Translations under genes and position numbers: made by a program | DNA from: a virus | Lineage: Duplodnaviria; Heunggongvirae; Uroviricota; Caudoviricetes | Length of the DNA stretch: 14,599 bases | Direction: 5' to 3' (one strand) | Virus record (IMG/VR): IMGVR_UViG_3300044728_000133 | The notes under the pieces: model-generated | What the model was told of the DNA's origin: nothing | The model's input: only the letters and a program-made list of their open reading frames with translations | The model's database searches: none | Shown: piece by piece, positions 1,890 through 14,599 of the stretch | Numbering within the stretch: the first letter of the stretch is position 1 | Layout: every line of letters starts with the position of its first letter

Positions 1890-3719
1890 TCAGACTGAAA
1901 GCAGGTTGACGTGCAGGACAAGGTTCTCGTCGTCGACATCCGTGCCGCCGCCGCCGCCGAACGGAAGCTCGAGGCTCCGCTGGATCTGAATCCACCCGGC
2001 GATGGTCGTGTCGGCGATGAAGATTGGCTTTGAGATGTCGCCGTCGGCGGTGGGCTCGGTAACAGTCATCGCGCCGGCGCTCGACTCGCTGAGCCAGTAT
2101 TGCTCACCCGCCGTCAGCCCTGAGAGCACGGTGGTGTATCCGCCCCCCTGGAGGGTGAAGTTGTCAGTGTCCGGCACATCCACCACCAAACCGACGACCT
2201 CGGCGTTCCCCAGTGAGTCTGCCTGCGCCTTTGCGTAGCCAGAGCCTGTATCGCGCAGCCAGTCACCGACGACGAAGCCGTGGCTGGCGATGTTGACGTT
2301 GAGCGTCCAGGCGACGTCGCCCGAGATGCCGTCCGCGCCAGCGTCGCCCGTCTGAGAGAAGTGCAGGAAGAGACCATCACCGTTCGAGAACGGGCTGGCG
2401 TCGGAGGACGCGACGACGTCGGCCACGAGCTTGCGGTATCCGGCGACGGTCGTGACGTCCGTGAGCCGGAAGAGGATCCACTTCGTCAGATCACTCGCCT
2501 TGACCAGGCGGACGTAGCCCTTGTATGGATTCGAGCTTGCGTCGAAAGAGTCGAGCGCGAGAGTCCAGTCCTCTCCCAGGTTGTCGAGCAAATCGACGAA
2601 GATCTGGGTGGCGATGTTCTGGGTGGCGGCGTTGAGCCGCACCGTCCCGGAGCCAGGGTCTGAGTCCGTCGTGGTGGTCGAGAACGTGTAACCGATCGCC
2701 ACAGCGCCTGAGTGTGGCCCGGTCGCTCCAGTCGCTCCGGTAGCGCCACCGGGGCTGCCTGTTGCTCCCACCGGGCCCGTTGCTCCGGTGGCACCGCCCG
2801 GGCTGCCTGTTGATCCCTGGTTCCCAGTCGCTCCAGTGGCACCGACGCCCGTCGCTCCGGTTGCCCCTCCGACCCCAGTGGATCCGGTAGCCCCGACGGC
2901 CCCTGTGGCTCCCGTCGTGCCTGCACCGGTTGCGCCGGTAGCACCTGCGGTACCCGCTGTCCCGGTCGCCCCGGTGTTACCGGTCGCGCCCGCTGGTGAA
3001 CCTGTCGCGCCCTGCGTGCCCGTAGCGCCTGTAGCACCTGCCCCGGTCGCACCAGTAGGCCCAGTCGGCCCGAGCGGCCCTGTGGCTCCTGTGGTACCCG
3101 CACCGGTTGCTCCAGTCGCTCCTGCCGTGCCCTGCGCGCCCTGGGTGCCCGTAGCTCCGGTAGCCCCTGCTGGTGACCCTGTCGCGCCCTGTGGCCCGGT
3201 CGCTCCCTGCTGGCCAGTGACGACAACCGAACCGAGCGGCGATGGCGTGCACACGATGATGACGCCGAGACCCAGCGCACCGGAACTGACCGTGTCCACG
3301 TCGATGTGCAGGTGATCGCCCCAGGAGAGAGAGATCGTGCCGCCGGAGGTGATGACTGGCTGGACGGCTGCGTCCTTCGAGTTGCACTCGCCCGAGTCAA
3401 TCGTGATCGGAGTCGAGAAGATGTCGGTCCCGACTTCACAGGGAGCGCTGTGACGGATATTGACGGTCGTTCCCCCTGCGCCTCCCGCCGTTGAGACGTA
3501 TGCCTCGGCCTTGATCAGCTCGGAGTTGTCGAGATCCTCGGGGATCTCCATGACGAAGGCGTCGTCCCCGATGATGACGTCCTCGTCATCGGCGAAGACC
3601 TTGATCTCGTAGACCGCTACACCTCGAGGGACTCCTGGGCGTCGTGCGAGCTGGCGAGTGCGGAAATCTGCCGCTGCTGCCTGACGTGCCTCAGTCGGCT
3701 CCTGAACTGGAGCGGTCAC
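1890..3719 (-). CDS. Collagen-like tail fibre/minor tail protein (609 aa)
   Basis: GTG start overlaps the upstream TAG. About 167 aa of Gly-X-Y repeats (mostly GAT) are flanked by globular beta-rich domains. It directly follows the Tal/hub gene. Confidence 0.85.
2715..3215 (-). repeat. Gly-X-Y collagen-like repeat region, Thr-rich, with interruptions (GSPAG, GAGTT, GVGG, GSPGG)
   Basis: Directly visible in translation and DNA. It contains a 114-nt diverged duplication (3078..3191 vs 2901..3014, offset 177 nt) and two [11 protein letters not shown] units. Confidence 0.95.
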
Positions 3720-5035: not shown

Positions 5036-5505
5036 CAGGTGACTTCCAAAAACCCGAAGCTGAAAGAGCGCAGCATGAAGTCATCCGTCGGCTGGACGTC
5101 AGCAGCGACCTCGTACTGGATAGTGAACGTCTCGCTTGTGCCGTTGCGCTTGGTGTAGGCAAGCGTGCCGTAAGGCGTGCGGATCATCGGATTGAGCACT
5201 GCATCGATCAGTTCCTCCATGTCATCGAGGATCTCCTGGCAGCTGCCAGAACCGAAGGGAACTGACTGCACGATCAGCGATCCCTCGAAGACCGGATGCC
5301 GTGGGCCAAACCAGTTCTTGTGCGCTACACCACCGTCGTTGAACGCCTTGTCTTCTCCGGTGGCTCGAATCGGCCCTCGATCGAGCCCGTGGATAGCGGC
5401 CACCCAATAGAGGTCGTCAAATGACCCATGGCCGAGGGTGCCGTCATTGAGGGCGAGTGATCCGCCTGAGGAAGTGATCGTGTACGTACACGACAAATCA
5501 GCCAA
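5035..5505 (-). CDS. Distal tail protein (Dit)-like minor tail protein (156 aa)
   Basis: First gene after the tape measure. The start is reassigned from the track's 5796 to TTG at 5505 (MADLSCTYTIT...), which has a GGAGG RBS upstream and overlaps the TMP stop by 8 nt. The track's N-terminal 97 codons lie inside the TMP gene. Confidence 0.75.
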   Translation of the reverse strand: MADLSCTYTITSSGGSLALNDGTLGHGSFDDLYWVAAIHGLDRGPIRATGEDKAFNDGGVAHKNWFGPRHPVFEGSLIVQSVPFGSGSCQEILDDMEELIDAVLNPMIRTPYGTLAYTKRNGTSETFTIQYEVAADVQPTDDFMLRSFSFGFLEVT

Positions 5506-8500
5506 CGCCGTGGCCTCCCCGGCCGCCGTAATCGAGCGCCGCTGTACCCTGTCTGCGCTGGCGGTGCGCCTCGGGATGCTCATTGCCGCGGTTGCCATGC
5601 TTGAGCAGGGTCTTGATCTCGCGCAAGAGCTGAATCTGGATGTTCCCCTGGGTGCTGGTAACGCCGCGGATTTTGTCCACAGCGGCCTGTCCGGTCGGGC
5701 GAGGAGACGGCTGATTCTTGATCGCTGATGTCGCAGATGGCGTGAAGACACTGCTGGGCGAGCTGCTCCCACCCACGAGGCCACCTGTCGCCCCACCGGG
5801 GATCAGGTTCCCGAGCAAACTGAAGGTGAAGCCCTGGACGTTCTGCAGGAACGCGAACTGCTGCTTCTGAAGCGACTCCAGTGACTTCTTCTTCTCTGCG
5901 GTGACGGCCTTGATGGCCGCGTTCTGCTCGGCGATCTCGTTGCGCAGTTCCTTCAGGTGGTTCTTCTGCTCCCTGGTGAGATGCTTCTGTTTCTTGATGA
6001 GGTAGATCTCCTTCTGGATGTTGGCGATCACCTTCTTGCGGGCGTTGATCTCGGCCTTCTTGTTTCCCGTCGTCACGAAGAAATCGACGTCGAGCTCGAG
6101 CCCCGTACGGATCTGCTCGTTGATGGTCGCGGCCTGTTCCTTGCGAAGAGCCTTGATGTCCTGGGTCAACCCGAACAGGACCTGGACAAGCTCGGCAATC
6201 GCCGCCTTCCTCAGCTTGAGCGTCTTCACCTGCTCGGCGATTCTCCGGATCTGGAGAATCACGAGCTTCTTCAGGAAGATCGTGGTCTTGATGTCATCAG
6301 CAAGCCCCGCAGTACCCGCCGCGATCGTGATCTTGTTCTGAGCCTTCGTTCGGTTGAGGTCGAAGCCAGCGAGGATGGCGTCGTCGATTCTCTCGCGAGC
6401 GTCTGCGGCATCCTTCGCGGCACCCTCTATGTCTCTCGCAGCGGATTCGCTATCGATCTTCTGCTGCTCGAGGATCGTCGCGATAGCCTCGTCCGCCTGC
6501 TCGAAATCAGCCGCTGCCTTTGCAACCTGAGCATTTCTCTGAGCATTCGTCAGATTCGGGTTGACCCTGGCCTGCGCTTCTCGCTTGGCCGCATCCGCAC
6601 GCTGCTTCTTAAGAATGGCGATGACCTGAGCATCAGATCCGTGGGCCTCGGCCACGGCAAGTTGGGTCGAGAGCGTTGAGACGAACTTTTCACCGAGGTC
6701 AAGCTTTGCGATGGCCTTCTCCGCGCCCTGGCTCAGCGCATCGATCATCGCCTCGCCAAGGAAATTAAAATCGGGGAGGACCGATTCAAAACCAGAAAGA
6801 ACGCCGAGCCCTCCCTTTTTCCCCTCCCCCTTAGCCTGGTTCGGATCGATCCTCGCCTTGATCTCCGCGATCGAGGGAACGATCCCCGTCTTCGTGATCT
6901 CCTTGACCAACTCCCTGATCGAACGCGCCACCTTCTGCGCCTCTGAATCTCCCTTCGCCAGCTTGTCCGCCATCTTGTCGAGCTGAACGAGAACTAGGTT
7001 TAGGTTGCTTTCTCCGGCAGTACTGCGGGGTCCCTGGCCAATCGACCTGAAGAGAAGCTCGACCTGAATGCGTGCCTTGAGGGCCGCTTCGCCGACCTTC
7101 TCTGTGTCCTTGGTAAGACCAGTTGCTCGGCCCAGACGACCACCACTTAGCGCGTTGGCTGTACGCGCTGCTCCTGCAATGGCCTTCCTTGGACGACGCG
7201 TGGGATCGATCGAGTTCTTGATCTGCTCTATCCCGATCTTCTTGAGGCCACCAAGGACCTTGTCCAGGAACGGAACCGAATTCGCAGCCTCCTTGCCGAT
7301 ATGGGCCAGACCACCACCGATCTTCTCGGTAACGATAATGACGTCATTGATGCCGGAGACCAACTCATTGATGGTGTCCACGAACAAGCTAAGTGGCCCA
7401 AGGGTCAGTGACCCGAGAAGCGTTCCGAGCGTCTCTAGGTTGGAGGTAAGGGCGGAGATCTTCCCCGAGAGACCGCTGGCCTGCGCCCCGGCGAGTTCGG
7501 CGGCAGAGCCATTGCGCGCTAGCGCTGTCCTCGTAGCGTCCAGCCCCGAGATTCCCTGGCGCCCGATCAGCGCCTGCGCTCGGATTGCGTCTGTCCCGAA
7601 GACGACGGCCGCAGCGCGGTCATGCTCCGCACGCGTGAGACGGCTTGTGGCTTGCTCGAACTCAGCGAAGACCTCTGGCCGGATGTTGCCTGCCGTGTCC
7701 CGGAGATCGATGTTCAGCTGCTTCAAAACGGAGCTAGCGCGCTTGGTCGGGTTGATCAGCTTGATGAAGGCCGTGCGCAAAGAGGTACCCGCGTCCGAGC
7801 CCTTCAGCCCAGCACGAGACAGGAGCGTCAGCAGTGCAACCGTATCGTCGAGGTTCACGCCGACGAGAGAGGCCGCAGCCGCCGACTGCTGCAAGGAAAT
7901 ACCCATGTCGGTGATCTCAGCCTGTGACTCATTGGCAGCGTTCGTGAGGAGATCGGCTACGTGCACTGCGTCCGTACCCCTCAGTGCAAATGCGTTGATC
8001 GCGCTGGCTACAAGAGTTCCTGCTTCAGCGAAATCGATCTCTGCGGCAGTAGCCAGCTGCAAGGTGCCTTTGGCGCCGTCGATGGCGTCCTGGACAGACA
8101 GCCCCGCCTTCACGAGCAGGAGCATGGACTTGGCTGCGTCTCCCGCCGAGACGCCTGGAAGCTTCACGTCACGACCGAGCTCGAGAGACGCCACCCTGAC
8201 CTGCTCCATCTCTTCTGCGGTGGCGCGGGAGACGACACGCAGGATGTTCAGCTGCTTCTGCAGATCAGCGGCGCTCGAAATTGCCTTCGCTGTGATCGCA
8301 ACCGCCGCTGCTCCAGCGAGGAACTCTCCGCCTGCGGCCAGGGTTGCTCCACGTGCCCCGACGGCCGCCAGCGCGGTGGCGATACCGCCGCGCCCGGCTG
8401 TTTTAGCCTTGCTTCGAAGTGCTGAGGTTTTTGCGAGCTGTTCCCGCTGGGCAACGATGTCGCCCTGGCGAGCAGTGATGTTTTCCAGCAGGGCTGCGGT

Positions 8501-9364
8501 GTCTGCCTGGATGGCGATGTTCTCGAGATCGATCGCCTTCTTGTTGACTGCGTGCAGGTCAGCCTCGACGGCCAGCAGATCGTTGTTCAGCTTGGCCAGC
8601 TGCGAGCGGGACGTGATCGCCTTGACGTTTTGCCCGAGCGCAGCATTGGCCGTCTTTTGAGCATCCGCAAACGCGCTGGTCAGTGCTGTCTGCTTCGACG
8701 CGTTTGAGATGATGCCCTTCTCGGTATTAAGCCTCGCGCCGAGGGACACCAGACCCTTTTGACGAAGAGCAAGTTCTTCTGCGAGTGCGGTGTTCCCAGC
8801 CGCTCTCGCTGCAGCCTCTCCCTTGATAGCAGCCGTAAGTCCCCGATCGATCTGCTGCATCCCAGCCTTTGCCTGCTTCAACTGGAACTCAGCGCCGAGA
8901 TTCTTCTTCAGGGCAACACTGAGTCTCCCCTCAGCAGCCGAGCGTCGATCAGTGAGATCAGCGAGGAGCGCCTCCTCTCGAGCGAGCGCCTTGTCTGCCT
9001 GCGTCTTCTGCTGCGTCCCAGCCGTACTGGCAGCGATGCCTTTCTCACTGACCCCAGCACGTCCGATCCTCGTGCCCGCCTCGACGGGGATACGGACAAT
9101 GACGCCCTTCGCAGCCTGGTCTACCTGCGTCTTCAGCGCTGCCCGGAACTTCCCGATCTCCACATTGGGCTTGACCGGGATGAGGATCGGCGTCTTACGA
9201 GCTTCGGCTTGGAGCGCTTTTCTGAAGGGAGTGATCTTGGCCTTGATGGGAACAGTGATGCCGCCACTGAGGGACTTCTCGATCTGTTTCCGCAGGTTGG
9301 CTCGGAAGCCCTTCTCCAGTTCGGACTGGATCCGGACAAAAGCGGTTGCTACGAAATCAGCCAA
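5498..9364 (-). CDS. Phage tail tape measure protein, TP901-family core (1288 aa)
   Basis: Longest ORF, Ala/Lys/Leu-rich and helical. Core at about 7430..8280: ATAEEMEQVR...LG...SAGDAAKSMLLLVKAGLS...GTLQLATA...VADLLTNAAN...AGLKGSDAGTSLR. It follows the chaperone genes and has a TTG start. Confidence 0.97.
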   Translation of the reverse strand: MADFVATAFVRIQSELEKGFRANLRKQIEKSLSGGITVPIKAKITPFRKALQAEARKTPILIPVKPNVEIGKFRAALKTQVDQAAKGVIVRIPVEAGTRIGRAGVSEKGIAASTAGTQQKTQADKALAREEALLADLTDRRSAAEGRLSVALKKNLGAEFQLKQAKAGMQQIDRGLTAAIKGEAAARAAGNTALAEELALRQKGLVSLGARLNTEKGIISNASKQTALTSAFADAQKTANAALGQNVKAITSRSQLAKLNNDLLAVEADLHAVNKKAIDLENIAIQADTAALLENITARQGDIVAQREQLAKTSALRSKAKTAGRGGIATALAAVGARGATLAAGGEFLAGAAAVAITAKAISSAADLQKQLNILRVVSRATAEEMEQVRVASLELGRDVKLPGVSAGDAAKSMLLLVKAGLSVQDAIDGAKGTLQLATAAEIDFAEAGTLVASAINAFALRGTDAVHVADLLTNAANESQAEITDMGISLQQSAAAASLVGVNLDDTVALLTLLSRAGLKGSDAGTSLRTAFIKLINPTKRASSVLKQLNIDLRDTAGNIRPEVFAEFEQATSRLTRAEHDRAAAVVFGTDAIRAQALIGRQGISGLDATRTALARNGSAAELAGAQASGLSGKISALTSNLETLGTLLGSLTLGPLSLFVDTINELVSGINDVIIVTEKIGGGLAHIGKEAANSVPFLDKVLGGLKKIGIEQIKNSIDPTRRPRKAIAGAARTANALSGGRLGRATGLTKDTEKVGEAALKARIQVELLFRSIGQGPRSTAGESNLNLVLVQLDKMADKLAKGDSEAQKVARSIRELVKEITKTGIVPSIAEIKARIDPNQAKGEGKKGGLGVLSGFESVLPDFNFLGEAMIDALSQGAEKAIAKLDLGEKFVSTLSTQLAVAEAHGSDAQVIAILKKQRADAAKREAQARVNPNLTNAQRNAQVAKAAADFEQADEAIATILEQQKIDSESAARDIEGAAKDAADARERIDDAILAGFDLNRTKAQNKITIAAGTAGLADDIKTTIFLKKLVILQIRRIAEQVKTLKLRKAAIAELVQVLFGLTQDIKALRKEQAATINEQIRTGLELDVDFFVTTGNKKAEINARKKVIANIQKEIYLIKKQKHLTREQKNHLKELRNEIAEQNAAIKAVTAEKKKSLESLQKQQFAFLQNVQGFTFSLLGNLIPGGATGGLVGGSSSPSSVFTPSATSAIKNQPSPRPTGQAAVDKIRGVTSTQGNIQIQLLREIKTLLKHGNRGNEHPEAHRQRRQGTAALDYGGRGGHGVG

Positions 9365-9766
9365 CTACTTGACCTTCAGGGCGGGCATCTTGGCCTGGAG
9401 AAATGCCAGGCTCCGGTTGTTCATTGCCACAATCTCTTCCTCCGTCATGTCTTGCACTCTGCGTTGGCCTCCCCGACGAACGGGTGGCCGCCGTTGCTGC
9501 TGTTGCGGTTGTTGCTCGACTGGATCCTTCCCGCCAGCGGGAACAACGTCCCTGCCATGCGCCCTCCACTGCTCGACAACCTCAAGAGCCTCCATGAGCG
9601 TGGCTGATGCCGAACGGGCCTCGTCAGCGAGGAGGGTGTAACCGGCATCGAGAAATTCTCTGAGCGAAAGTGCACGCGGGTTACCTCCGTTGAGCGTTAC
9701 GCGGCCCCAGATGTAGGACCGGTTCGCCCAGCACCAGAGGCCAAGGGAGTGGGCGGCGGCGTAGGG
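9365..9766 (-). CDS. Tail assembly chaperone 'T' segment, probably expressed as a G-T fusion by -1 frameshift
   Basis: The track's 9365..9595 ORF extends upstream without a stop in the -1 frame of the chaperone: PYAAAHSLGLWCWANRSYIWGRVTLNGGNPRALSLREFLDAGYTLLADEARSASATLMEALEVVEQW... There is no ATG/GTG/TTG at the start of this protein-like segment. Confidence 0.75.
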   Translation of the reverse strand, partial: PYAAAHSLGLWCWANRSYIWGRVTLNGGNPRALSLREFLDAGYTLLADEARSASATLMEALEVVEQWRAHGRDVVPAGGKDPVEQQPQQQQRRPPVRRGGQRRVQDMTEEEIVAMNNRSLAFLQAKMPALKVK

Positions 9767-10095
9767 CGGCCGGACTGCGTTTCGTAGAGATCGTTGTGGA
9801 ACTCGACGAACTTCCAGGCCGGAACGGCTTCCTTGCCTTTGCGCGCGCGGAGGGCCTTGTAGCGCTTCGTCATGTCTGTGTCACCAGCCATGAAGGCGAG
9901 GATGTGGCGATCGATCCGCTGCATCGCCGTCTCAGGCACCTTGCCGTTCTTGTCGTCTTCGACGTCGGCCAGAAGGGCGTCGGCCTCTTCTCGCTCCCAA
10001 GCCTCGATGATGTCTGGGGAGACATCGTGTACCTCGAACGTCTCTCCGCCGAGCGTGAAGGTCATGTCGTGGGAGAGTTCGTCGTAATTCGGCAT
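9697..10095 (-). CDS. Tail assembly chaperone 'G' (132 aa)
   Basis: ATG at 10095 with a perfect AAGGAGG RBS 5 nt upstream (start reassigned from 10134). The protein is acidic and helical, ends in a low-complexity SGRPTPPPTP...GAA tail, and lies directly before the tape measure region. Confidence 0.85.
   Translation of the reverse strand: MPNYDELSHDMTFTLGGETFEVHDVSPDIIEAWEREEADALLADVEDDKNGKVPETAMQRIDRHILAFMAGDTDMTKRYKALRARKGKEAVPAWKFVEFHNDLYETQSGRPTPPPTPLASGAGRTGPTSGAA
9761..9770 (-). promoter_or_regulatory. Candidate -1 programmed frameshift site (GC CGC CCT AC; CCT to CCC)
   Basis: This is the point where frame 0 turns low-complexity (RPTPPP) and the -1 frame becomes protein-like (PYAAAH). 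The -1 frame is open from about 9884, so the exact site is an inference. Confidence 0.5.
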
Positions 10096-10100
10096 TGCTT

Positions 10101-10107
10101 CCTCCTT
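10101..10107 (-). promoter_or_regulatory. Shine-Dalgarno AAGGAGG for the chaperone gene
   Basis: Exact consensus 5 nt upstream of ATG 10095, overlapping the TAA of the terminator gene. Confidence 0.85.
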
Positions 10108-10657
10108 AGGAGCCGATCGGCTCCTGGTAGCCACCTAGAACGACCCGGATCGTCCACGTCCATCCGGCTGATTCGCCGGAGGGGATTAGGGCGAGTAGGG
10201 CGTCAAACTCCGCTGCGTCGCAGAGCGTAAGGAAGTCCCCGGATGCCTTGACGTTGTGCAGGTGGTTCCAGAGCGCCCAAGCATCGGCGTTCCCCTGCTC
10301 AGCGTCGAGACCCAGTAGCACCGGGCTAGGGGCTGAATACGCACCCAGTGCCGAGACATCCCCGGTCGTGACGCACCGTGTGGATGTGATGACGAGGGCG
10401 ACGTGGTTCATCCACGCACCCCTTGATGCTCTCTTTCCTGCCTCCAGACCGCCGGGCGTCGTGTCCATCTCCGAGATGGGGGTGACGTGGACGGTGAGCT
10501 GATCAGGGCAATCGAGCGCGGGCAGACCGAAAGAGACGTACCTGTGATCTTGAGCGCCCTGAAGATTGGCGTCGAAGTCGGGAATCGTGTTCAGAGCGTC
10601 GACACAGTGCTGCAGGACCTCCGCGGCAATGGCCTGAAGGTCACCGATCCCGGCCAT
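10106..10657 (-). CDS. Tail terminator / tail completion protein (183 aa)
   Basis: Positioned between the gp10-like and chaperone genes. The P-A-L-D-C-x-x-Q-L-T-V...TRCV...GW-x-W-x-I pattern resembles terminators that accompany Cys-rich adaptors in actinophages. Confidence 0.65.
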   Translation of the reverse strand: MAGIGDLQAIAAEVLQHCVDALNTIPDFDANLQGAQDHRYVSFGLPALDCPDQLTVHVTPISEMDTTPGGLEAGKRASRGAWMNHVALVITSTRCVTTGDVSALGAYSAPSPVLLGLDAEQGNADAWALWNHLHNVKASGDFLTLCDAAEFDALLALIPSGESAGWTWTIRVVLGGYQEPIGS

Positions 10658-11065
10658 CTAGCTTCCCGTGAAAGGCTTGCCGAACTCGGAGCAGAGTGCG
10701 GGCTCGAGGAAGGGGTAGCGGTATGCACCCTGCGTCCTGCCATTCCTGAACGTCGGCAGATTGCCCGCCGGCCCAGGCATCCCCTTCTCCAGCGCGAGTC
10801 CGTACGGGAAACCTTGGCGTGGTGACTTCACGTCGGTGCCGATCAGGGCGTACAGTCCCTGAGGGTTCTGGAAGATCCCGGCATTCCGGATACTTGCGAA
10901 GAGCGCACGCGAACGCGGTCGTGGGCCGCCACCTTGACCGAGAGCGTTCTGGTGGGCACGCACGTCCACGCCATTTGCCTTGAGTGCGAGGTAGCGACCA
11001 ACGGGGCCGTCCTCACGCAGAGCGAGGCTGCGGATTCCGCTCTCGTGAATGACCACCCGCGTCAT
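10658..11065 (-). CDS. HK97 gp10-like neck/tail completion protein (135 aa)
   Basis: Start reassigned to ATG 11065 (ATGA overlap with the adaptor stop). It has the gp10-like pattern R-S-R-A-L-x-x-S-I...Y-G-L-A-L-E-x-G...YPFLEPAL. Confidence 0.7.
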   Translation of the reverse strand: MTRVVIHESGIRSLALREDGPVGRYLALKANGVDVRAHQNALGQGGGPRPRSRALFASIRNAGIFQNPQGLYALIGTDVKSPRQGFPYGLALEKGMPGPAGNLPTFRNGRTQGAYRYPFLEPALCSEFGKPFTGS

Positions 11066-12171
11066 GAGGCAATCCTGCGTCCATACCGCTGGTGGGAACT
11101 CGGCCCGAAGAAGAGAGCACGTCGGCTTAAGCCATGCGGATTGAACGTGTTCAAGAAGATGTCGACGAGCGGAATGCCGGTCGACCAAACTCCATTCGCG
11201 TCTCGGTGCATGAAGGTCTTCTCAATCGTGATCCCCTGGCGCGTGATGCGGGTAGCGCCGAAGGGAAGCGCGCAGTCGTCAGCGCCTGTGCACGACTTCG
11301 AGATCTCACAGGCTAGGGCTCGAGCGGCGTACTGTGCTGAACTCGGCGGGATCTTGCCCAGTGTGTACGTGACTGTGAACGCACCGTCCGCGTCGTCATC
11401 GACGTCCAGCGACTGACAGCTCGGCCAGAGCGCTCCGTTCTTGCGCACCAGCCACTCGTTGTCACGGATGAGGTACGTGTCAGGGTCGATGACCACTCCG
11501 TCGATCATGACCTCGGTGACCTCGCGAACTGGTCCCGCCAGCGGTACCTCGGAGATCGGTCGGCAGCCACACGGCCTGGAGTCACCCCAGCAGTCACCCG
11601 TCCAACCAACCAGGTGCCCCCTGGAGAGCACCTGGAATCCGCAGCCACATGTGTTCGAGACACATGGACGAACGGTGTCCTGACAGAGACCGGCGAATCG
11701 GCTCCCTGAAGCCAGGTAGAGCAGTTCGGAGGCCGCATTCACAGCAGCATCCAGAACCTCCGCTTCCTCTATCCCGCAGCAAGTACTAACGTCCTCCGTG
11801 GTCGTCCATGCACTACAGGGACCCGTCTGAAGTCCGCCGTCTGCTGGAGGCGGGATCGGCGGGAGGAACCCAGATTCTCCGGCGACGACCACAACGAGCT
11901 CGTCTGCCGTAGATGTCGTTACGGGATCCCAGGTGCCATCAGGCGACCAGGCGATGGTGTACTGACCGACTAGCGCCGGCGCTGCGGGTGCATTCCACGT
12001 GTAGATGCCGATCGGGGTGCCGAGAACCGTTTCCTCGGTGATATTCGTCGTAGTCGGTCCGATGACGGTGTTGCCGTCCCCGTCGAATACGGCGACCTCG
12101 ACCGTGCCGACCAACCCGTCGGTGCCATCGGCATAGACGGCCTCAAAGGGCTGGGACTGCTCAACGTACAC
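11062..12171 (-). CDS. Head-to-tail adaptor with N-terminal extension (369 aa)
   Basis: The C-terminal 250 aa or so (AASELLYLASGSRF..C..TVRPC...VTEVMIDGVVID...WLVR..G..WP.CQ...FTVTY..G..PP...LACEI...C.LP...ITRQGIT...TGIPLVDIFL...NP) match actinophage adaptors as I recognise them. GTG start, with an in-frame TAG 4 codons upstream. Confidence 0.8.
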   Translation of the reverse strand: MYVEQSQPFEAVYADGTDGLVGTVEVAVFDGDGNTVIGPTTTNITEETVLGTPIGIYTWNAPAAPALVGQYTIAWSPDGTWDPVTTSTADELVVVVAGESGFLPPIPPPADGGLQTGPCSAWTTTEDVSTCCGIEEAEVLDAAVNAASELLYLASGSRFAGLCQDTVRPCVSNTCGCGFQVLSRGHLVGWTGDCWGDSRPCGCRPISEVPLAGPVREVTEVMIDGVVIDPDTYLIRDNEWLVRKNGALWPSCQSLDVDDDADGAFTVTYTLGKIPPSSAQYAARALACEISKSCTGADDCALPFGATRITRQGITIEKTFMHRDANGVWSTGIPLVDIFLNTFNPHGLSRRALFFGPSSHQRYGRRIAS

Positions 12172-12183
12172 GCCGGGCTGAGT

Positions 12184-12768
12184 CTAGGGCTTTCTACGGA
12201 CGGCGAACACACCGTAGTACGCGCGACCGACGGCACCGTCCGTGTTCAGGTGAACCGTGAAGCCGGTGCCGCCAAGCCATTCATTGAGCAGTTCTTCGGT
12301 CAATAGATGCGGGTGCCCTTCGTAAGGCGGGATGTCGATCCACTCGAAGAGACGAACAGTGCCCGCAATGTCGAGAGCTCGCTTGACGACGAGCGCCGGG
12401 TCACGAACATGCTGGAGGACGTTGTAGACCCAGGCTTCGTCGAAGTAGTAGCCAGCGAGGCTCGGGCTCTCTGCCTCCATGCACCAGTACTCGATGCCGC
12501 AATGTTCGTATCTCTTCAGCACCCACTCTGGGAAGACGCTGGGATCGGCGACGGCAGCGCGCCCCTTCTCCACGCACTTGAGCAACAGTGAAACAGGGCC
12601 ACCCCCGATGTCGATGACCGAGCGTCCCTGGAGGTTGAACGTCGGCGGATGAGCGCCGTGCCAGCTTGGAAGCAGACCCATGCGTGGCGCGTAGACGAGC
12701 TGCTTCTGCTCCTCGTGGAGGGTGGAGGCGCAGTCACCCCACCAGGCTGCTTCGTCGAACTCGCTCAT
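12184..12768 (-). CDS. Class I SAM-dependent methyltransferase (194 aa)
   Basis: Start reassigned to ATG 12768 (ATGA overlap). Motif I is VIDIGGGP. Downstream are FDEAWVYNVLQHVRDP and a GTVRLFEW strand, typical of Methyltransf_11/23-like folds. Confidence 0.85.
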   Translation of the reverse strand: MSEFDEAAWWGDCASTLHEEQKQLVYAPRMGLLPSWHGAHPPTFNLQGRSVIDIGGGPVSLLLKCVEKGRAAVADPSVFPEWVLKRYEHCGIEYWCMEAESPSLAGYYFDEAWVYNVLQHVRDPALVVKRALDIAGTVRLFEWIDIPPYEGHPHLLTEELLNEWLGGTGFTVHLNTDGAVGRAYYGVFAVRRKP

Positions 12769-13907
12769 TGATCGAAGCCGCGTTCCCAGAGAGTGTCCAA
12801 CTGATCCATCCAATCCATGAACTGCGGCCCGACCGCCTCCTGCGAGTAGCGCGCTCTCGCAGCTCGACGGATGTCCTTGCGGTTCAGCTTCTGAACCTCC
12901 TGGAACGCTTCGGCTCCCTGGAGTGGCGTGCGAAAGCGCGCGCCCACGTCTGGCGTCACCGTCTCTGTGAATGCACCCCAGTCGGACGCGACAACCGGGC
13001 AACCCGCGAGCATCGCCTCAACCGCCACGCCTCCGAAGGGTTCCACGTACAGCGTCGGGACAATCGTTGCGGCAGCGTTCTGCATCAGTTCGTTGCGGTC
13101 GGCGAACCCGACCGAGCCCATGTACAGGCAGTCGCCTTTGATCACCACACCGTCGGCTCCGGTGATCTGCCCTTCGGTCACGTGTGTCGCTCCAGGGCCA
13201 GCGATGTACAGCGGTAATCCGATGCGTTTCGCAATCTCCATGGCCACATGCGGCCCCTTGCGCAGGATGATCCTTCCGATGAAGAGGACGTAGTCACCCT
13301 TGGGCTTCCGAGCCACGGAGAACTGCCTCGCGTCGAAGAAGTTGGGGATGACTGCGTCAAACGCGCGACCGTCCCCGGTGCCCTGGATCCCGTACACGTT
13401 GTGCATCCAGGCGTAGGACTCGTAGGCATGGAACGAGCGCGCGTCGACCCCGATGTAGCCGACGCCCCACTCGAGCGTGATCGGGTTGTTCCACTTCGGC
13501 CCCGCGATGGCGTCAGCGATCGGGGCCTGCGTCGAGGTAAGGAGACAGAGGAAGTGGTCGCGGCGATCAGCGGGCATGCGCTCCCGCATAGCGTCGATGG
13601 CCCTCGTGTTGGCCTCGAACCAGTACGGCTGCGTGTTGTCCCACTCGAATGCCTTGGTGGTGTCGTAGCCGTTGGGCCCGCCGTAACCCCAGCGCAGACG
13701 ATCGGCCTCGGTCGAGATCACTACGTGCTCGTCCGGCTCGCAGTCGATCTCGTCGGGGCCATAGAGGATGACGTAGCAGCCCTGCGCCCGGAACATCGGC
13801 ACGGCTTTCAGCAGCTTCATTGAGTACGCGCAGCTCGCGTCCTTCTCGGTGAGAGTTGTATGAGGAAGAGCGACGAGGTGGAGCGTGCGGTTATGTTCGA
13901 GGCTCAC
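12765..13907 (-). CDS. GT-B fold glycosyltransferase, GT4-like (380 aa)
   Basis: Start reassigned to GTG 13907 (GTGA overlap). Motifs: IPNFFD, VLFIGRIILRKG and EPFGGVAVEAMLAGCPVVASDWGAFTE (the E-x7-E signature of retaining GT-B enzymes). Confidence 0.92.
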   Translation of the reverse strand: MSLEHNRTLHLVALPHTTLTEKDASCAYSMKLLKAVPMFRAQGCYVILYGPDEIDCEPDEHVVISTEADRLRWGYGGPNGYDTTKAFEWDNTQPYWFEANTRAIDAMRERMPADRRDHFLCLLTSTQAPIADAIAGPKWNNPITLEWGVGYIGVDARSFHAYESYAWMHNVYGIQGTGDGRAFDAVIPNFFDARQFSVARKPKGDYVLFIGRIILRKGPHVAMEIAKRIGLPLYIAGPGATHVTEGQITGADGVVIKGDCLYMGSVGFADRNELMQNAAATIVPTLYVEPFGGVAVEAMLAGCPVVASDWGAFTETVTPDVGARFRTPLQGAEAFQEVQKLNRKDIRRAARARYSQEAVGPQFMDWMDQLDTLWERGFDQ

Positions 13908-14110
13908 GCCGGCGGGAACTGATGGGCGAATGTCAACCGAACGAGCGGCCAACTCTGGACAGAGAACGGAGTGCATCCATTCGGACACGCCTCCGGCCAT
14001 CCCGAGTTGTCATTCGGCCAAGAACACTCGGCGCCGCAGTTCATGCAATACCCAATCTGCGGGGCTTCGCCTTCCGGCTCACCCTTGGGGAACTGAAGAA
14101 GTTTGCCCAT
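13904..14110 (-). CDS. Small hypothetical protein with CxxC...CxxxC (possible Zn-ribbon, 68 aa)
   Basis: ATG 14110 in a TGATG overlap, and its stop overlaps the GT start. It fills the operon exactly. Sequence: YCMNCGAEC...ACPNGC. Confidence 0.6.
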   Translation of the reverse strand: MGKLLQFPKGEPEGEAPQIGYCMNCGAECSWPNDNSGWPEACPNGCTPFSVQSWPLVRLTFAHQFPPA

Positions 14111-14385
14111 CACGCCACCAGGATCATGATCTCGGGAGGGTGATCGTCCGTCCATGTCGGCCCGGTGCACATGGGCTCCATTCGCTGGTCATTTCGCTCC
14201 TGGCGTCCGCAAAGTGGGCAGCGGTAGACAAAGGCGGAGCCGGTCTCAAAGAGCCCCGTCTCGATCAGTGCCTTGGCCTCTTCATCCGCAGAATAGGCTC
14301 GTCGCTCACGCTTGACCAGGTGGGGATCCTTGTGACCGGGAAGCCAAACCGGGATTCCCTCGGTCTCGCGAAGGGGGAAGGTCAT
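14110..14385 (-). CDS. Small hypothetical protein with CxxC...C-x8-H (possible Zn-binding, 91 aa)
   Basis: ATG 14385 in an ATGA overlap with GAGGAG 5 nt upstream. Sequence: YRCPLCGRQ...PMCTGPTWTDDH. Confidence 0.7.
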   Translation of the reverse strand: MTFPLRETEGIPVWLPGHKDPHLVKRERRAYSADEEAKALIETGLFETGSAFVYRCPLCGRQERNDQRMEPMCTGPTWTDDHPPEIMILVA

Positions 14386-14599
14386 TGCCACTCCTCTACT
14401 GGACACTCGATCCCCGCGAGGATACTCGCTCGATCGGACTCATACCCGTTCGCAAGATCGCCCGTGTGCCACTCGACTAGGACGCGCGAGAATCTGTCCA
14501 TCAATCCCTGCTCGATCAGATAGGGCAGCAGCACGTACTCCGCGCCCTCGATGTCGACCTTCAGCACGATCTTCGTATCGGGAAGCATTCTGACCCAGG
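14382..14599 (-). CDS. FkbM-family (Methyltransf_21-like) methyltransferase, C-terminal part (5' end beyond window)
   Basis: The frame is open to the window edge (..WVRMLPD..). It contains IVLKVDIEGAEYVLL...VLVEWH, the characteristic FkbM C-terminal motif. Confidence 0.85.
   Translation of the reverse strand, partial: WVRMLPDTKIVLKVDIEGAEYVLLPYLIEQGLMDRFSRVLVEWHTGDLANGYESDRASILAGIECPVEEWQ

Follow-up and report, generated by a model that had tools for sequence, protein, structure and literature searches.

A candidate cassette for glycosylation of threonine-rich collagen-like fibres in the late operon of an uncultured siphophage

Introduction

Mycobacteriophages such as Che8 (gp108-110) and the Corndog-type phages of cluster O encode glycosyltransferases (GTs) that modify the phage's own virion proteins, the proven targets being the capsid and the tail tube. 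To our knowledge, virion glycosylation in phages has been proven only for a few mycobacteriophages, in which it weakens recognition by antibodies. The Corndog-type phages combine an O-methyltransferase with three GTs, according to the account of Freeman et al. 2023 that is cited in PMC11600133.

Glycosylation of collagen-like proteins is known from other settings. In Bacillus anthracis BclA and the Clostridioides difficile BclA3/SgtA system, Gly-X-Thr collagen repeats carry O-glycans on Thr, and the modifying genes lie near the substrate gene. Methylated sugars reportedly occur in the Bacillus BclA glycans, as described by Daubenspeck in 2004 (cited in PMC11923368). Collagen triplets of the vent worm Riftia have O-glycosylated Thr in the Y position, and this modification takes the place of hydroxyproline in stabilising the triple helix; similarly, the peptide (Gly-Pro-Thr)10 forms a triple helix only with galactosylated Thr, and viral collagens are enriched in T-G-A and T-G-P triplets (PMC11923368). 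Mimivirus encodes both collagens and the enzymes that glycosylate them, including the L230 lysyl hydroxylase/glucosyltransferase and a collagen glucosyltransferase (PMC9546862).

Here we analyse a 14,599-nucleotide stretch of DNA from an uncultured siphophage (referred to below as the window), in which a GT gene and two methyltransferase genes are embedded among virion genes.

Results

The cassette consists of five minus-strand genes, running from the 3' fragment of an FkbM-like methyltransferase gene through two genes for small Cys proteins (small1 and small2) and a GT4 glycosyltransferase gene to a gene for a class I SAM methyltransferase (MT), with successive ATGA, TGATG, GTGA and ATGA overlaps (Table 1). 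The preliminary description had claimed an unbroken overlap chain that leads into the adaptor gene, and this was confirmed, with all junctions located on the minus strand; the adaptor and the gene that follows it share an ATGA overlap as well. The overlap chain is thus real, yet such packing is usual for phage late operons. No promoter-like or terminator-like sites were seen on the cassette strand between positions 9000 and 14599, and the GC content of the cassette is the same as that of the neighbouring genes. A search of INPHARED with positions 11000-14599 gave no DNA-level match. The parent contig was also looked for by exact 40-mers in viral, metagenome and genome collections, with no match, and a protein identical to the GT was not on record; the part of the cassette upstream of the window was read through relatives only.

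Table 1. Positions of the cassette genes and of the virion genes discussed in the text
Feature	Coordinates	Strand	Remarks
FkbM-like SAM methyltransferase, 3' fragment	14382-14599	minus	last 72 codons; gene cut by window edge
small1	14110-14385	minus	91 aa; own ATG overlaps upstream TGA as ATGA at 14385-14382
small2	13904-14110	minus	68 aa; TGATG junction at 14112-14108
GT4 glycosyltransferase	12765-13907	minus	380 aa; GTG start; GTGA junction at 13907-13904
Class I SAM methyltransferase (MT)	12184-12768	minus	194 aa; ATGA junction at 12768-12765
Head-tail adaptor	11062-12171	minus	GTG start at 12171, 12 nt past MT stop; phrog_783
Collagen-like tail fibre	1890-3719	minus	609 aa; Gly-X-Thr repeats; tail-fibre and collagen PHROGs

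The GAT-repeat collagen fibre previously noted in the window is also present, on the same strand as the cassette. Its Gly-X-Thr repeats occupy approximately residues 168-348 (approximately window positions 2676-3218); most triplets are G-A-T, and Thr is found at 70% of the Y positions. This is the only collagen gene visible in the window, and it lies 9 kb downstream of the GT. The GT itself directly adjoins the MT/adaptor side and not a collagen gene, and the upstream region in which a collagen gene is expected is cut off by the window edge.

The identity of the GT is clear from profile searches: it scored 56.1 bits against Pfam Glycos_transf_1 PF00534 (cut-off 26.4) and 52.4 bits against PF13692 (cut-off 27), and it matched the phrog_3408 profile over its full length (E 7.3e-49, profile positions 6-347 of 363). 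Both Glu residues of its EX7E motif, E289-P-F-G-G-V-A-V-E297, are invariant among 10 diverse homologues. Judged by these sequence features the enzyme belongs to GT4, with a predicted GT-B fold class and retaining type. We favour the GTG start over an internal ATG or an upstream ATG at 14000, since homologues align from residue ~9 (LHxVxLPHT). Relatives are encoded on at least 572 viral contigs and at least 173 genome contigs, the nearest among isolated phages being those of Synechococcus myophages. The solved relatives of the GT (glucosylsucrose synthase, tetrahydrobiopterin glucosyltransferase and PimA) act on small-molecule or lipid acceptors, which counts against a role in fibre glycosylation.

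The MT matches phrog_3603 (2.5e-48), and all of 18 homologues keep its motif I (D53-I-G-G-G-P58) as well as the acidic residue that closes strand 2 (D75). Its AF2 model (pLDDT 86.4) has a class I Rossmann-like seven-strand methyltransferase fold, for which Foldseek gave at least 500 PDB methyltransferase matches at E <=0.001 (best 3mcz, 6e-8), with small-molecule O/N-methyltransferases (3mcz, NodS, UbiG, EvdMO1) at E values of 6e-8 to 1e-6. A profile search against PDB sequences gave weak UbiG matches only, and against Pfam Methyltransf_23 the MT scored 19 bits (cut-off 27) and its homologue in locus L001 27.0. The modelled fold identifies the MT as a class I SAM-dependent methyltransferase and points to no particular acceptor. 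The MT adjoins the GT in 15 loci (tblastn), including that of cyanophage ACG-2014f, in which gp017 is an MT homologue of 47% identity; the MT-GT pair has been kept between the siphophage of the window and ACG-2014f.

A protein search recovered the full-length FkbM-like protein of the ~90-kb parent contig (P0244, 180 aa), whose C-terminus is identical to the window fragment. P0244 matched TIGR01444 fkbM_fam at E 2.7e-5 and 24.6 bits, below the cut-off of 37.7, and had no Pfam match at E <=0.01; the window fragment matched PF05050 weakly (E 0.013). Homologues at 41-53% identity carry PF05050, and the protein has an invariant K-x-D-x-E-G-A-E motif. Foldseek paired its model with the FkbM structure 2py6 (probability 0.97, TM 0.49, E 0.04) and returned nothing at E <=0.001; in VIA-align, 2py6 reached Z 8.0 (rmsd 3.4 over 137 residues), level with generic Rossmann folds, and no PDB sequence matched in a profile search.

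Neither of the small Cys proteins belongs to a Pfam, PHROG or NCBIfam family. The conserved C-x2-C...C pattern of small1 is a possible zinc site, and the conserved CxxC...CxxxC pattern of small2 is zinc-ribbon-like. Loci L009, L010 and L015 have copies of small1 with 84-91% identity, which in every case follow the FkbM-like gene, and L009/L010 have a 78% identical copy of small2 in which the four Cys are kept. In the Atlas, small1 had only sub-threshold leads, as were all zinc-finger leads for the small proteins, and the nearest clusters to small2 are viral hypothetical proteins.

The genomic surroundings of GT relatives were examined in 96 mostly viral loci. Among the 72 whose upstream sequence spans 3 kb or more, 49 have a collagen-like Gly-X-Thr ORF within 3 kb upstream of the GT relative on the same strand, compared with only 1 of 73 within 3 kb downstream (Fisher p 1e-19, a value that ignores kinship among phylogenetically non-independent loci). 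In most of the 49 upstream ORFs Thr takes 50-100% of the Y positions, and 13 of the 49 are directly adjacent to the GT. A replicate with the best 80 loci from bacterial genome assemblies gave a similar picture, a collagen-like ORF being found upstream in 30/47 loci and downstream in 3/59. Co-occurrence of the GT with Thr-rich collagen genes, proposed earlier as a check, is therefore strong and directional in two independent collections. Of the 37 loci whose upstream sequence reaches 8 kb or more, 5 lack a collagen-like ORF.

Phages of unrelated types share the linkage. In the Synechococcus myophage S-CBWM1, a collagen-repeat 'tail fiber protein' gene ends 9 nt before the GT, and S-CAM7 and ACG-2014f show the same collagen-then-GT pattern. 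In 9 loci the next gene on the upstream side of the GT encodes a GT25 (PF01755), and in cyanophages a gene for a P4H-type 2OG oxygenase (PF13640) is among the neighbours; the human collagen galactosyltransferase belongs to GT25, and PF13640 is the domain of P4H. Overall, methyltransferases, GT25 or P4H-type enzymes often accompany the phrog_3408 GT. Accessory genes are, for their part, known to gather downstream of fibre genes, which could give linkage without a substrate relation.

The closest relative with long context, locus L009, bears out the prediction of more cassette genes: upstream it encodes a giant collagen and a GT2-like protein, along with the FkbM-like protein, small1 and small2. 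Collagen giants of 991 and 1209 aa stand upstream of GT-MT-adaptor in L009 and L013, respectively, and in L001 and L012 a collagen fibre gene is followed, a few genes further on, by the GT, which has the MT beside it or nearby. Locus L015, whose GT is 71% identical, has no collagen ORF within 10 kb on either side. As a control, a search of IMG/VR based on the adaptor found two relatives only, a number too small for statistics: L099 with neither GT nor collagen, and L100 with collagen and no GT. The GT is thus not obligatory for collagen giants, as L100 has such a giant without a phrog_3408 GT.

Discussion

GT relatives are nearly always found just after genes for Thr-rich collagen-like fibres, and the GT of the window therefore probably sugar-coats such fibres. 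The tight coupling of the cassette to structural genes, with no promoter or terminator between them and uniform GC, argues for the same conclusion, as do the GT25 and P4H-type neighbours, which belong to collagen-modifying families. Considering the sequence-based evidence as a whole, we think it probable, on balance, that the cassette carries out late-expressed O-glycosylation of Thr-rich collagen fibres together with methylation of the sugar. The preliminary description had proposed that an O-methylated glycan decorates the fibre, neck or capsid; this is supported in part, in that the computational tests were favourable and the probable target narrows to collagen fibres. The analogy drawn with Che8 would hold for function only: gp108 is not akin to the GT, and the Che8 GT genes lie outside the structural operon.

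We propose that a late-expressed cassette for virion glycosylation is cut by the window edge, with its downstream half inside the window. The soluble GT4 would take a host nucleotide-sugar and O-glycosylate Thr at the Y position of a Gly-X-Thr fibre. Candidate substrates are the 609-aa tail fibre and a bigger collagen protein whose gene probably lies right beyond the upstream window edge. The phrog_3603 MT and the FkbM-like methyltransferase may then methylate the sugar. A likely benefit would be that a proline-poor triple helix is stabilised or solubilised, or that the fibre surface is masked or tuned.

It is possible that the cassette glycosylates other virion proteins (the capsid, the tail tube or the adaptor with its Thr-rich extension), and that shared placement alone accounts for the link to collagen. 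In clusters O and F it is established that phage GTs, together with an O-methyltransferase, glycosylate the capsid and the tail tube, as summarised in PMC11600133. In the window, L009, L013 and L015 the adaptor gene comes straight after the GT-MT pair, which elsewhere directly precedes a portal gene (16 loci) or an SU10-type adaptor gene (11 others). The adaptor of the window, which matches the phrog_783 head-tail adaptor family over residues 122-361 (7.6e-53), also carries an additional Thr-rich N-terminal domain of ~120 aa. However, what follows downstream varies (portal, adaptor or endolysin region), and it is the collagen gene on the upstream side that stays constant; in cyanomyophages the GT is found among fibre and baseplate genes, far from the capsid genes; and the GT has no homology to Che8 gp108 (BLASTP E 0.87, hhalign probability 0.3%). 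We therefore regard other virion proteins as unlikely targets.

Another explanation, and in our opinion a quite unlikely one, is that the GT and methyltransferases are 'moron' genes whose products change an envelope glycan of the host during infection or lysogeny, so as to exclude superinfecting phages or mask a receptor; their place beside fibre genes would then reflect only the build-up of accessory genes there. The automatic names of GT homologues ('glycosyltransferase involved in cell wall biosynthesis') and the PHROG category of phrog_3408 (moron/auxiliary metabolic genes) point in this direction, as do the far-sub-threshold generic GT4 matches in NCBIfam, to LPS, EPS and lipid GT4 enzymes, and an integrase-family gene directly upstream of the GT in 8 loci. 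However, no membrane-spanning segment is predicted in the cassette proteins (maximum 19-residue Kyte-Doolittle mean 1.38), and no flippase or lipid-carrier gene accompanies the cassette. The GT is of GT4 and not of the GtrB-type GT2, and the combination of integral-membrane GT and flippase that is typical of seroconversion Gtr systems was not found, which speaks against the host-surface role raised in the preliminary description as a possible refutation. The placement in a late operon described above, the specificity of the link for collagen-type fibres, which holds also where the collagen gene precedes head/neck genes, and the GT25 and P4H-type companions likewise count against an action on the host envelope.

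That the GT glycosylates phage DNA against restriction, through hypermodification of hydroxymethyl- or hydroxy-pyrimidines, is very improbable: some phages have proposed DNA glycosyltransferases of GT-B/GT4-like type that share their best structural neighbours (7fg9, 8x3q, 5zfk) with the present GT (PMC13326640), and the genome of one distant relative, G002, includes a ThyA-like gene, but that gene is ~17 kb from its GT, known DNA-modification GTs cluster with C5-MT/5mYOX or ThyS and not with structural genes (bioRxiv 10.1101/2023.12.21.572611), the methyltransferases here are FkbM-like and small-molecule-like and not C5-cytosine enzymes, and the neighbouring hydroxymethylase that had been named as a counter-indication is missing, with no thymidylate-synthase-like or TET/JBP gene in the window (Pfam/PHROG annotation) and no match to PF00303 or PF12851 in the complete 56.6-kb genome of the close relative G001 (GT 80% identical).

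Returning to the glycosylation of collagen fibres, a broader and more tentative idea is that the phrog_3408 family may be a dedicated collagen-Thr O-glycosyltransferase, widespread in phages and some bacteria, whose sugar replaces hydroxyproline and is needed for folding or stabilising proline-poor Gly-X-Thr stalks. Were this true, glycosylation of fibres would be an overlooked but widespread part of building virions, in phages as different as soil siphophages and marine cyanomyophages. If the GT family does glycosylate Thr-rich collagen fibres, this would explain the Gly-X-Thr richness of viral and bacterial collagens, offer a testable account of what stabilises proline-poor triple helices, and add a post-translational layer to host recognition by phage fibres and to their immune visibility. 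The idea is directly testable, since the family is present in the cultured cyanophages S-CAM7, ACG-2014f and S-CBWM1.

The phage cassette as proposed would be a fresh variant on known virion and collagen glycosylation. It would share the logic of the mycobacteriophage systems, in which phage GTs modify the phage's own virion proteins; however, the Che8 GT genes are located at the right genome end and the GT of the window in the structural operon, gp108 is unrelated in sequence, and the proposed targets are collagen-like fibres instead of capsid and tail tube. The BclA and BclA3/SgtA systems are cellular and not viral. SgtA is reportedly a GT-A enzyme with TPR, as opposed to the GT4/GT-B type of the phage GT. 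The BclA-type arrangement of a gene for a candidate Gly-X-Thr substrate beside the GT is seen for the GT family, and in the window the collagen gene is 9 kb away. Riftia collagen is an animal protein and (Gly-Pro-Thr)10 a synthetic peptide, the enzymes being unknown or unrelated to the phage GT, and Mimivirus is a eukaryotic giant virus with hydroxylysine-linked glycans and other enzyme families.

The cyanomyophage genes, for whose function in ACG-2014f, S-CAM7 and S-CBWM1 we found no study in the literature, are carried by different phages, namely ~139-228 kb myophages of cyanobacteria, and are joined there by a P4H-type oxygenase. They are nevertheless true homologues (GT 31-33% identity over 96% length, MT 47%) standing beside a Gly-X-Thr collagen/tail-fibre gene: in ACG-2014f, gp015-gp019 encode a collagen protein, gp016, the phrog_3603 MT, the phrog_3408 GT and a 2OG-Fe(II) oxygenase, and S-CAM7 and S-CBWM1 have equivalent genes.

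Organization of the cassette in the late operon

The window represents a single late operon of a siphophage, with all genes co-directional on the minus strand and a GC content of 62%. The preliminary description had reported an unbroken overlap chain running from an FkbM-like methyltransferase gene through two small Cys proteins (small1 and small2), a glycosyltransferase (GT) and a methyltransferase (MT) into the adaptor gene, and we were able to confirm each junction (see table). No promoter-like or terminator-like sites were found on the minus strand within 9000-14599. An ATGA overlap also joins the adaptor to the next gene: although the longest ORF there (10658-11188, minus strand) overlaps the adaptor by 126 nt, its true start is likely an ATG at 11065 that forms an ATGA with the adaptor stop codon, and the coupling chain therefore extends beyond the adaptor. 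Such an overlap chain is the usual packing of operons of this kind.

Features of the cassette and of the structural genes that follow it
Feature	Position	Strand	Product	Remarks
FkbM-like methyltransferase	14382-14599	minus	last 72 codons	fragment; gene cut by window edge
small1	14110-14385	minus	91 aa	ATGA junction with preceding gene
small2	13904-14110	minus	68 aa	TGATG junction with preceding gene
GT4 glycosyltransferase	12765-13907	minus	380 aa	GTG start; GTGA junction with preceding gene
SAM methyltransferase	12184-12768	minus	194 aa	ATGA junction with preceding gene
Head-tail adaptor	11062-12171	minus	369 aa	12-nt gap to preceding gene; phrog_783 match
Tape-measure gene	5498-9364	minus		downstream of adaptor
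Collagen-like fibre	1890-3719	minus	609 aa	downstream of adaptor

At its N-terminus the adaptor has about 120 extra residues (1-120; the phrog_783 match covers residues 122-361), a Thr-, Val- and Gly-rich stretch that appears beta-rich. This extension is kept in the 358-374-aa adaptors of three related loci (L009, L013 and L015), and in SU10-type adaptors of distant loci the Pfam match likewise begins at about residue 112.

The glycosyltransferase, the methyltransferases and the small proteins

Judged by its sequence, the GT is a bona fide GT4/GT-B enzyme: it matches Glycos_transf_1 with 56 bits (cut-off 26.4) and phrog_3408 at 7e-49, and the EX7E motif is invariant across its homologues. These align from a conserved LHxVxLPHT strand, which supports the GTG start. 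NCBIfam gave generic GT4 matches only, all far below threshold, and among enzymes of solved structure its sequence relatives are glucosylsucrose synthase, tetrahydrobiopterin glucosyltransferase and PimA (PMC9909042). The metagenomic protein set contains over 1,000 members of the family, and relatives are encoded in at least 572 IMG/VR contigs and in 173 species genomes from Saccharibacteria, Bacillota, Actinomycetota and other phyla. The segment 11000-14599 has no DNA-level match among isolated phages; at the protein level, GT relatives among them occur only in the Synechococcus myophages ACG-2014f, S-CAM7 and S-CBWM1 (31-33% identity over 96% of the protein).

The downstream MT matches phrog_3603 (2.5e-48), has an invariant motif I (DIGGGP) and is predicted to adopt a confident class I fold (pLDDT 86). 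The structures closest to the model belong to O- and N-methyltransferases of small molecules, among them NodS and EvdMO1, a sugar O-methyltransferase; a sugar would fit as candidate acceptor.

For the truncated gene, a protein search retrieved the complete 180-aa protein of the parent contig itself, P0244, which has the window fragment as its C-terminus. We take it to be a divergent, short member of the FkbM family because it matches TIGR01444 (E 2.7e-5, under the cut-off), bears an invariant K-x-D-x-E-G-A-E motif, has PF05050-bearing homologues (41-53% identity), and finds the FkbM structure 2py6 among its top fold matches, tied with generic Rossmann folds. The small proteins have conserved Cys patterns (C-x2-C...C in small1, CxxC...CxxxC in small2) and matched no known family in profile, family-database and Atlas searches (Pfam, PHROG, NCBIfam). 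In relatives the FkbM-like gene always precedes small1, which therefore belongs to an FkbM-like sub-module rather than to that of the GT.

Gene order in relatives

The GT and the phrog_3603 MT form a mobile pair of varying position. In L001, a genome complete at 56.6 kb and with a GT of 80% identity, the pair follows the tape measure, a collagen fibre and two more genes and precedes an M23 endolysin; in L012 the GT follows a collagen fibre and three more genes, and the MT comes two genes later. L009, L013 and L015 have the pair just ahead of the adaptor, as in the window. Downstream neighbours of the GT include portal, protease and capsid genes in 16 loci and an SU10-type adaptor in 11.

L009 (GT 85% identical) encodes, in order, a collagen-repeat protein (called 991 aa), several unknown genes, a GT2-like and an FkbM-like protein, small1, small2, an HNH endonuclease, the GT, two methyltransferases and the adaptor. 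The further cassette genes anticipated beyond the window are thus present upstream in this relative (GT2-like, FkbM-like, collagen-repeat), and the arrangement is probably a model of what lies past the window edge. The HNH gene (L009 9298-10062), which separates small2 from the GT in this relative, the closest one with long context, has no counterpart in the window and may be a mobile insertion inside the cassette.

The GT family is linked to Thr-rich collagen genes upstream

We scanned all fetched loci for collagen ORFs, defined as at least 15 Gly-X-Y triplets in runs of at least 6, with the downstream flank of the same loci as internal control. Among 96 mostly viral loci, a collagen ORF lay within 3 kb upstream on the same strand in 49/72, against 1/73 within 3 kb downstream (Fisher p 1e-19, the loci not being phylogenetically independent). 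The co-occurrence with Thr-rich collagen genes that the preliminary description had proposed to examine recurs across a set of 80 loci from bacterial genome assemblies (30/47 upstream, same strand; 3/59 downstream); the counts lack phylogenetic independence and cover several synteny types and phyla.

Most upstream collagen ORFs of the mostly viral set have Thr at 50-100% of their Y positions, and 13 of the upstream ORFs directly adjoin the GT. In this set 37 distinct loci extend at least 8 kb upstream; a hand count put a collagen ORF somewhere upstream in 32 of them. In the bacterial set most collagen ORFs stop 70-300 nt ahead of the GT. There (L119-L180; Bacillota, Saccharibacteria and other MAG or genome contigs) the ORF is usually a Gly-X-Thr protein of 200-700 aa, either a prophage fibre or a cellular, exosporium-like collagen protein. 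The window's own fibre is rich in G-A-T, with Thr at 70% of Y positions.

Two exceptions were noted. No collagen ORF lies within 10 kb in L015, and L100, whose adaptor is related, encodes a collagen protein of 1,213 aa and 278 triplets but no phrog_3408 GT; giant collagen proteins before neck genes can therefore occur without this enzyme family. In L100 (3321-9969) a 671-aa LamG-domain protein follows the collagen protein.

Discussion

The window is a peripheral, truncated example of a collagen-linked GT cassette. The proposal that the phage decorates its fibre, neck or capsid with a methylated glycan is partly supported by the upstream linkage, and its target is narrowed to collagen fibres. 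We infer the acceptor, sugar and benefit of the cassette: expressed late in infection, the GT would take an NDP-sugar from the host, since the window has no sugar-nucleotide gene, and O-glycosylate Thr of the G-X-T repeats; methylation of the attached sugar by the methyltransferases would follow.

It is less likely that other virion proteins (capsid, tail tube, adaptor) are the targets, as the downstream neighbour of the GT varies while the upstream collagen gene is constant. Modification of the host envelope appears less likely as well: no cassette protein has a membrane-spanning segment, and the genes sit within the late operon and match their neighbours in GC. Against this, accessory genes are known to accumulate downstream of fibre genes, and this hotspot remains a real confounder. 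Glycosylation of phage DNA, one of the outcomes named beforehand as contradicting virion decoration, is unlikely, as published DNA-GT clusters adjoin thymidylate-synthase-like or TET/JBP-type genes and the complete relative G001 has neither.

Glycosylation of collagen repeats would accord with published work. A (Gly-Pro-Thr)10 triple helix forms only with galactosylated Thr, and viral and bacterial collagens over-represent T-G-A and T-G-P triplets (PMC11923368). Modification of bacterial collagen-like and tail-collar proteins by hydroxylases and sulfotransferases encoded alongside them was predicted in earlier comparative work, which does not mention this GT (PMC2938197); our literature search turned up no report of glycosylated collagen-like fibres in phages. 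The suggested analogy to mycobacteriophage Che8 holds at the level of function only, because the GT is unrelated to the virion glycosyltransferase Che8 gp108 (BLASTP E 0.87; hhalign probability 0.3%).

In cultured cyanomyophages, a collagen-repeat protein, a phrog_3603 MT, a phrog_3408 GT and a P4H-type 2OG-Fe(II) oxygenase stand in a row. ACG-2014f (NC_026927; 4172-9660 of locus L017) has the order collagen protein gp015, gp016, MT homologue gp017 (47% identical to the window MT), GT gp018 and oxygenase, the S-CAM7 counterpart of which matches PF13640; in S-CBWM1 (7009-9062 of locus L011) a G-X-T 'tail fiber protein' ends 9 nt ahead of the GT. Our literature search found no studies of this row, which looks like a collagen-modification cluster. 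Moreover, in 9 loci a 191-aa GT25-family protein (PF01755) separates the collagen gene from the GT4 gene, immediately upstream of the latter; loci with such a protein about 590 nt upstream include L043, L044, L051, L056, L084 and L095. Animal collagen is modified by these same two families, GT25 and P4H-type oxygenases, and the human collagen galactosyltransferases are GT25 members.
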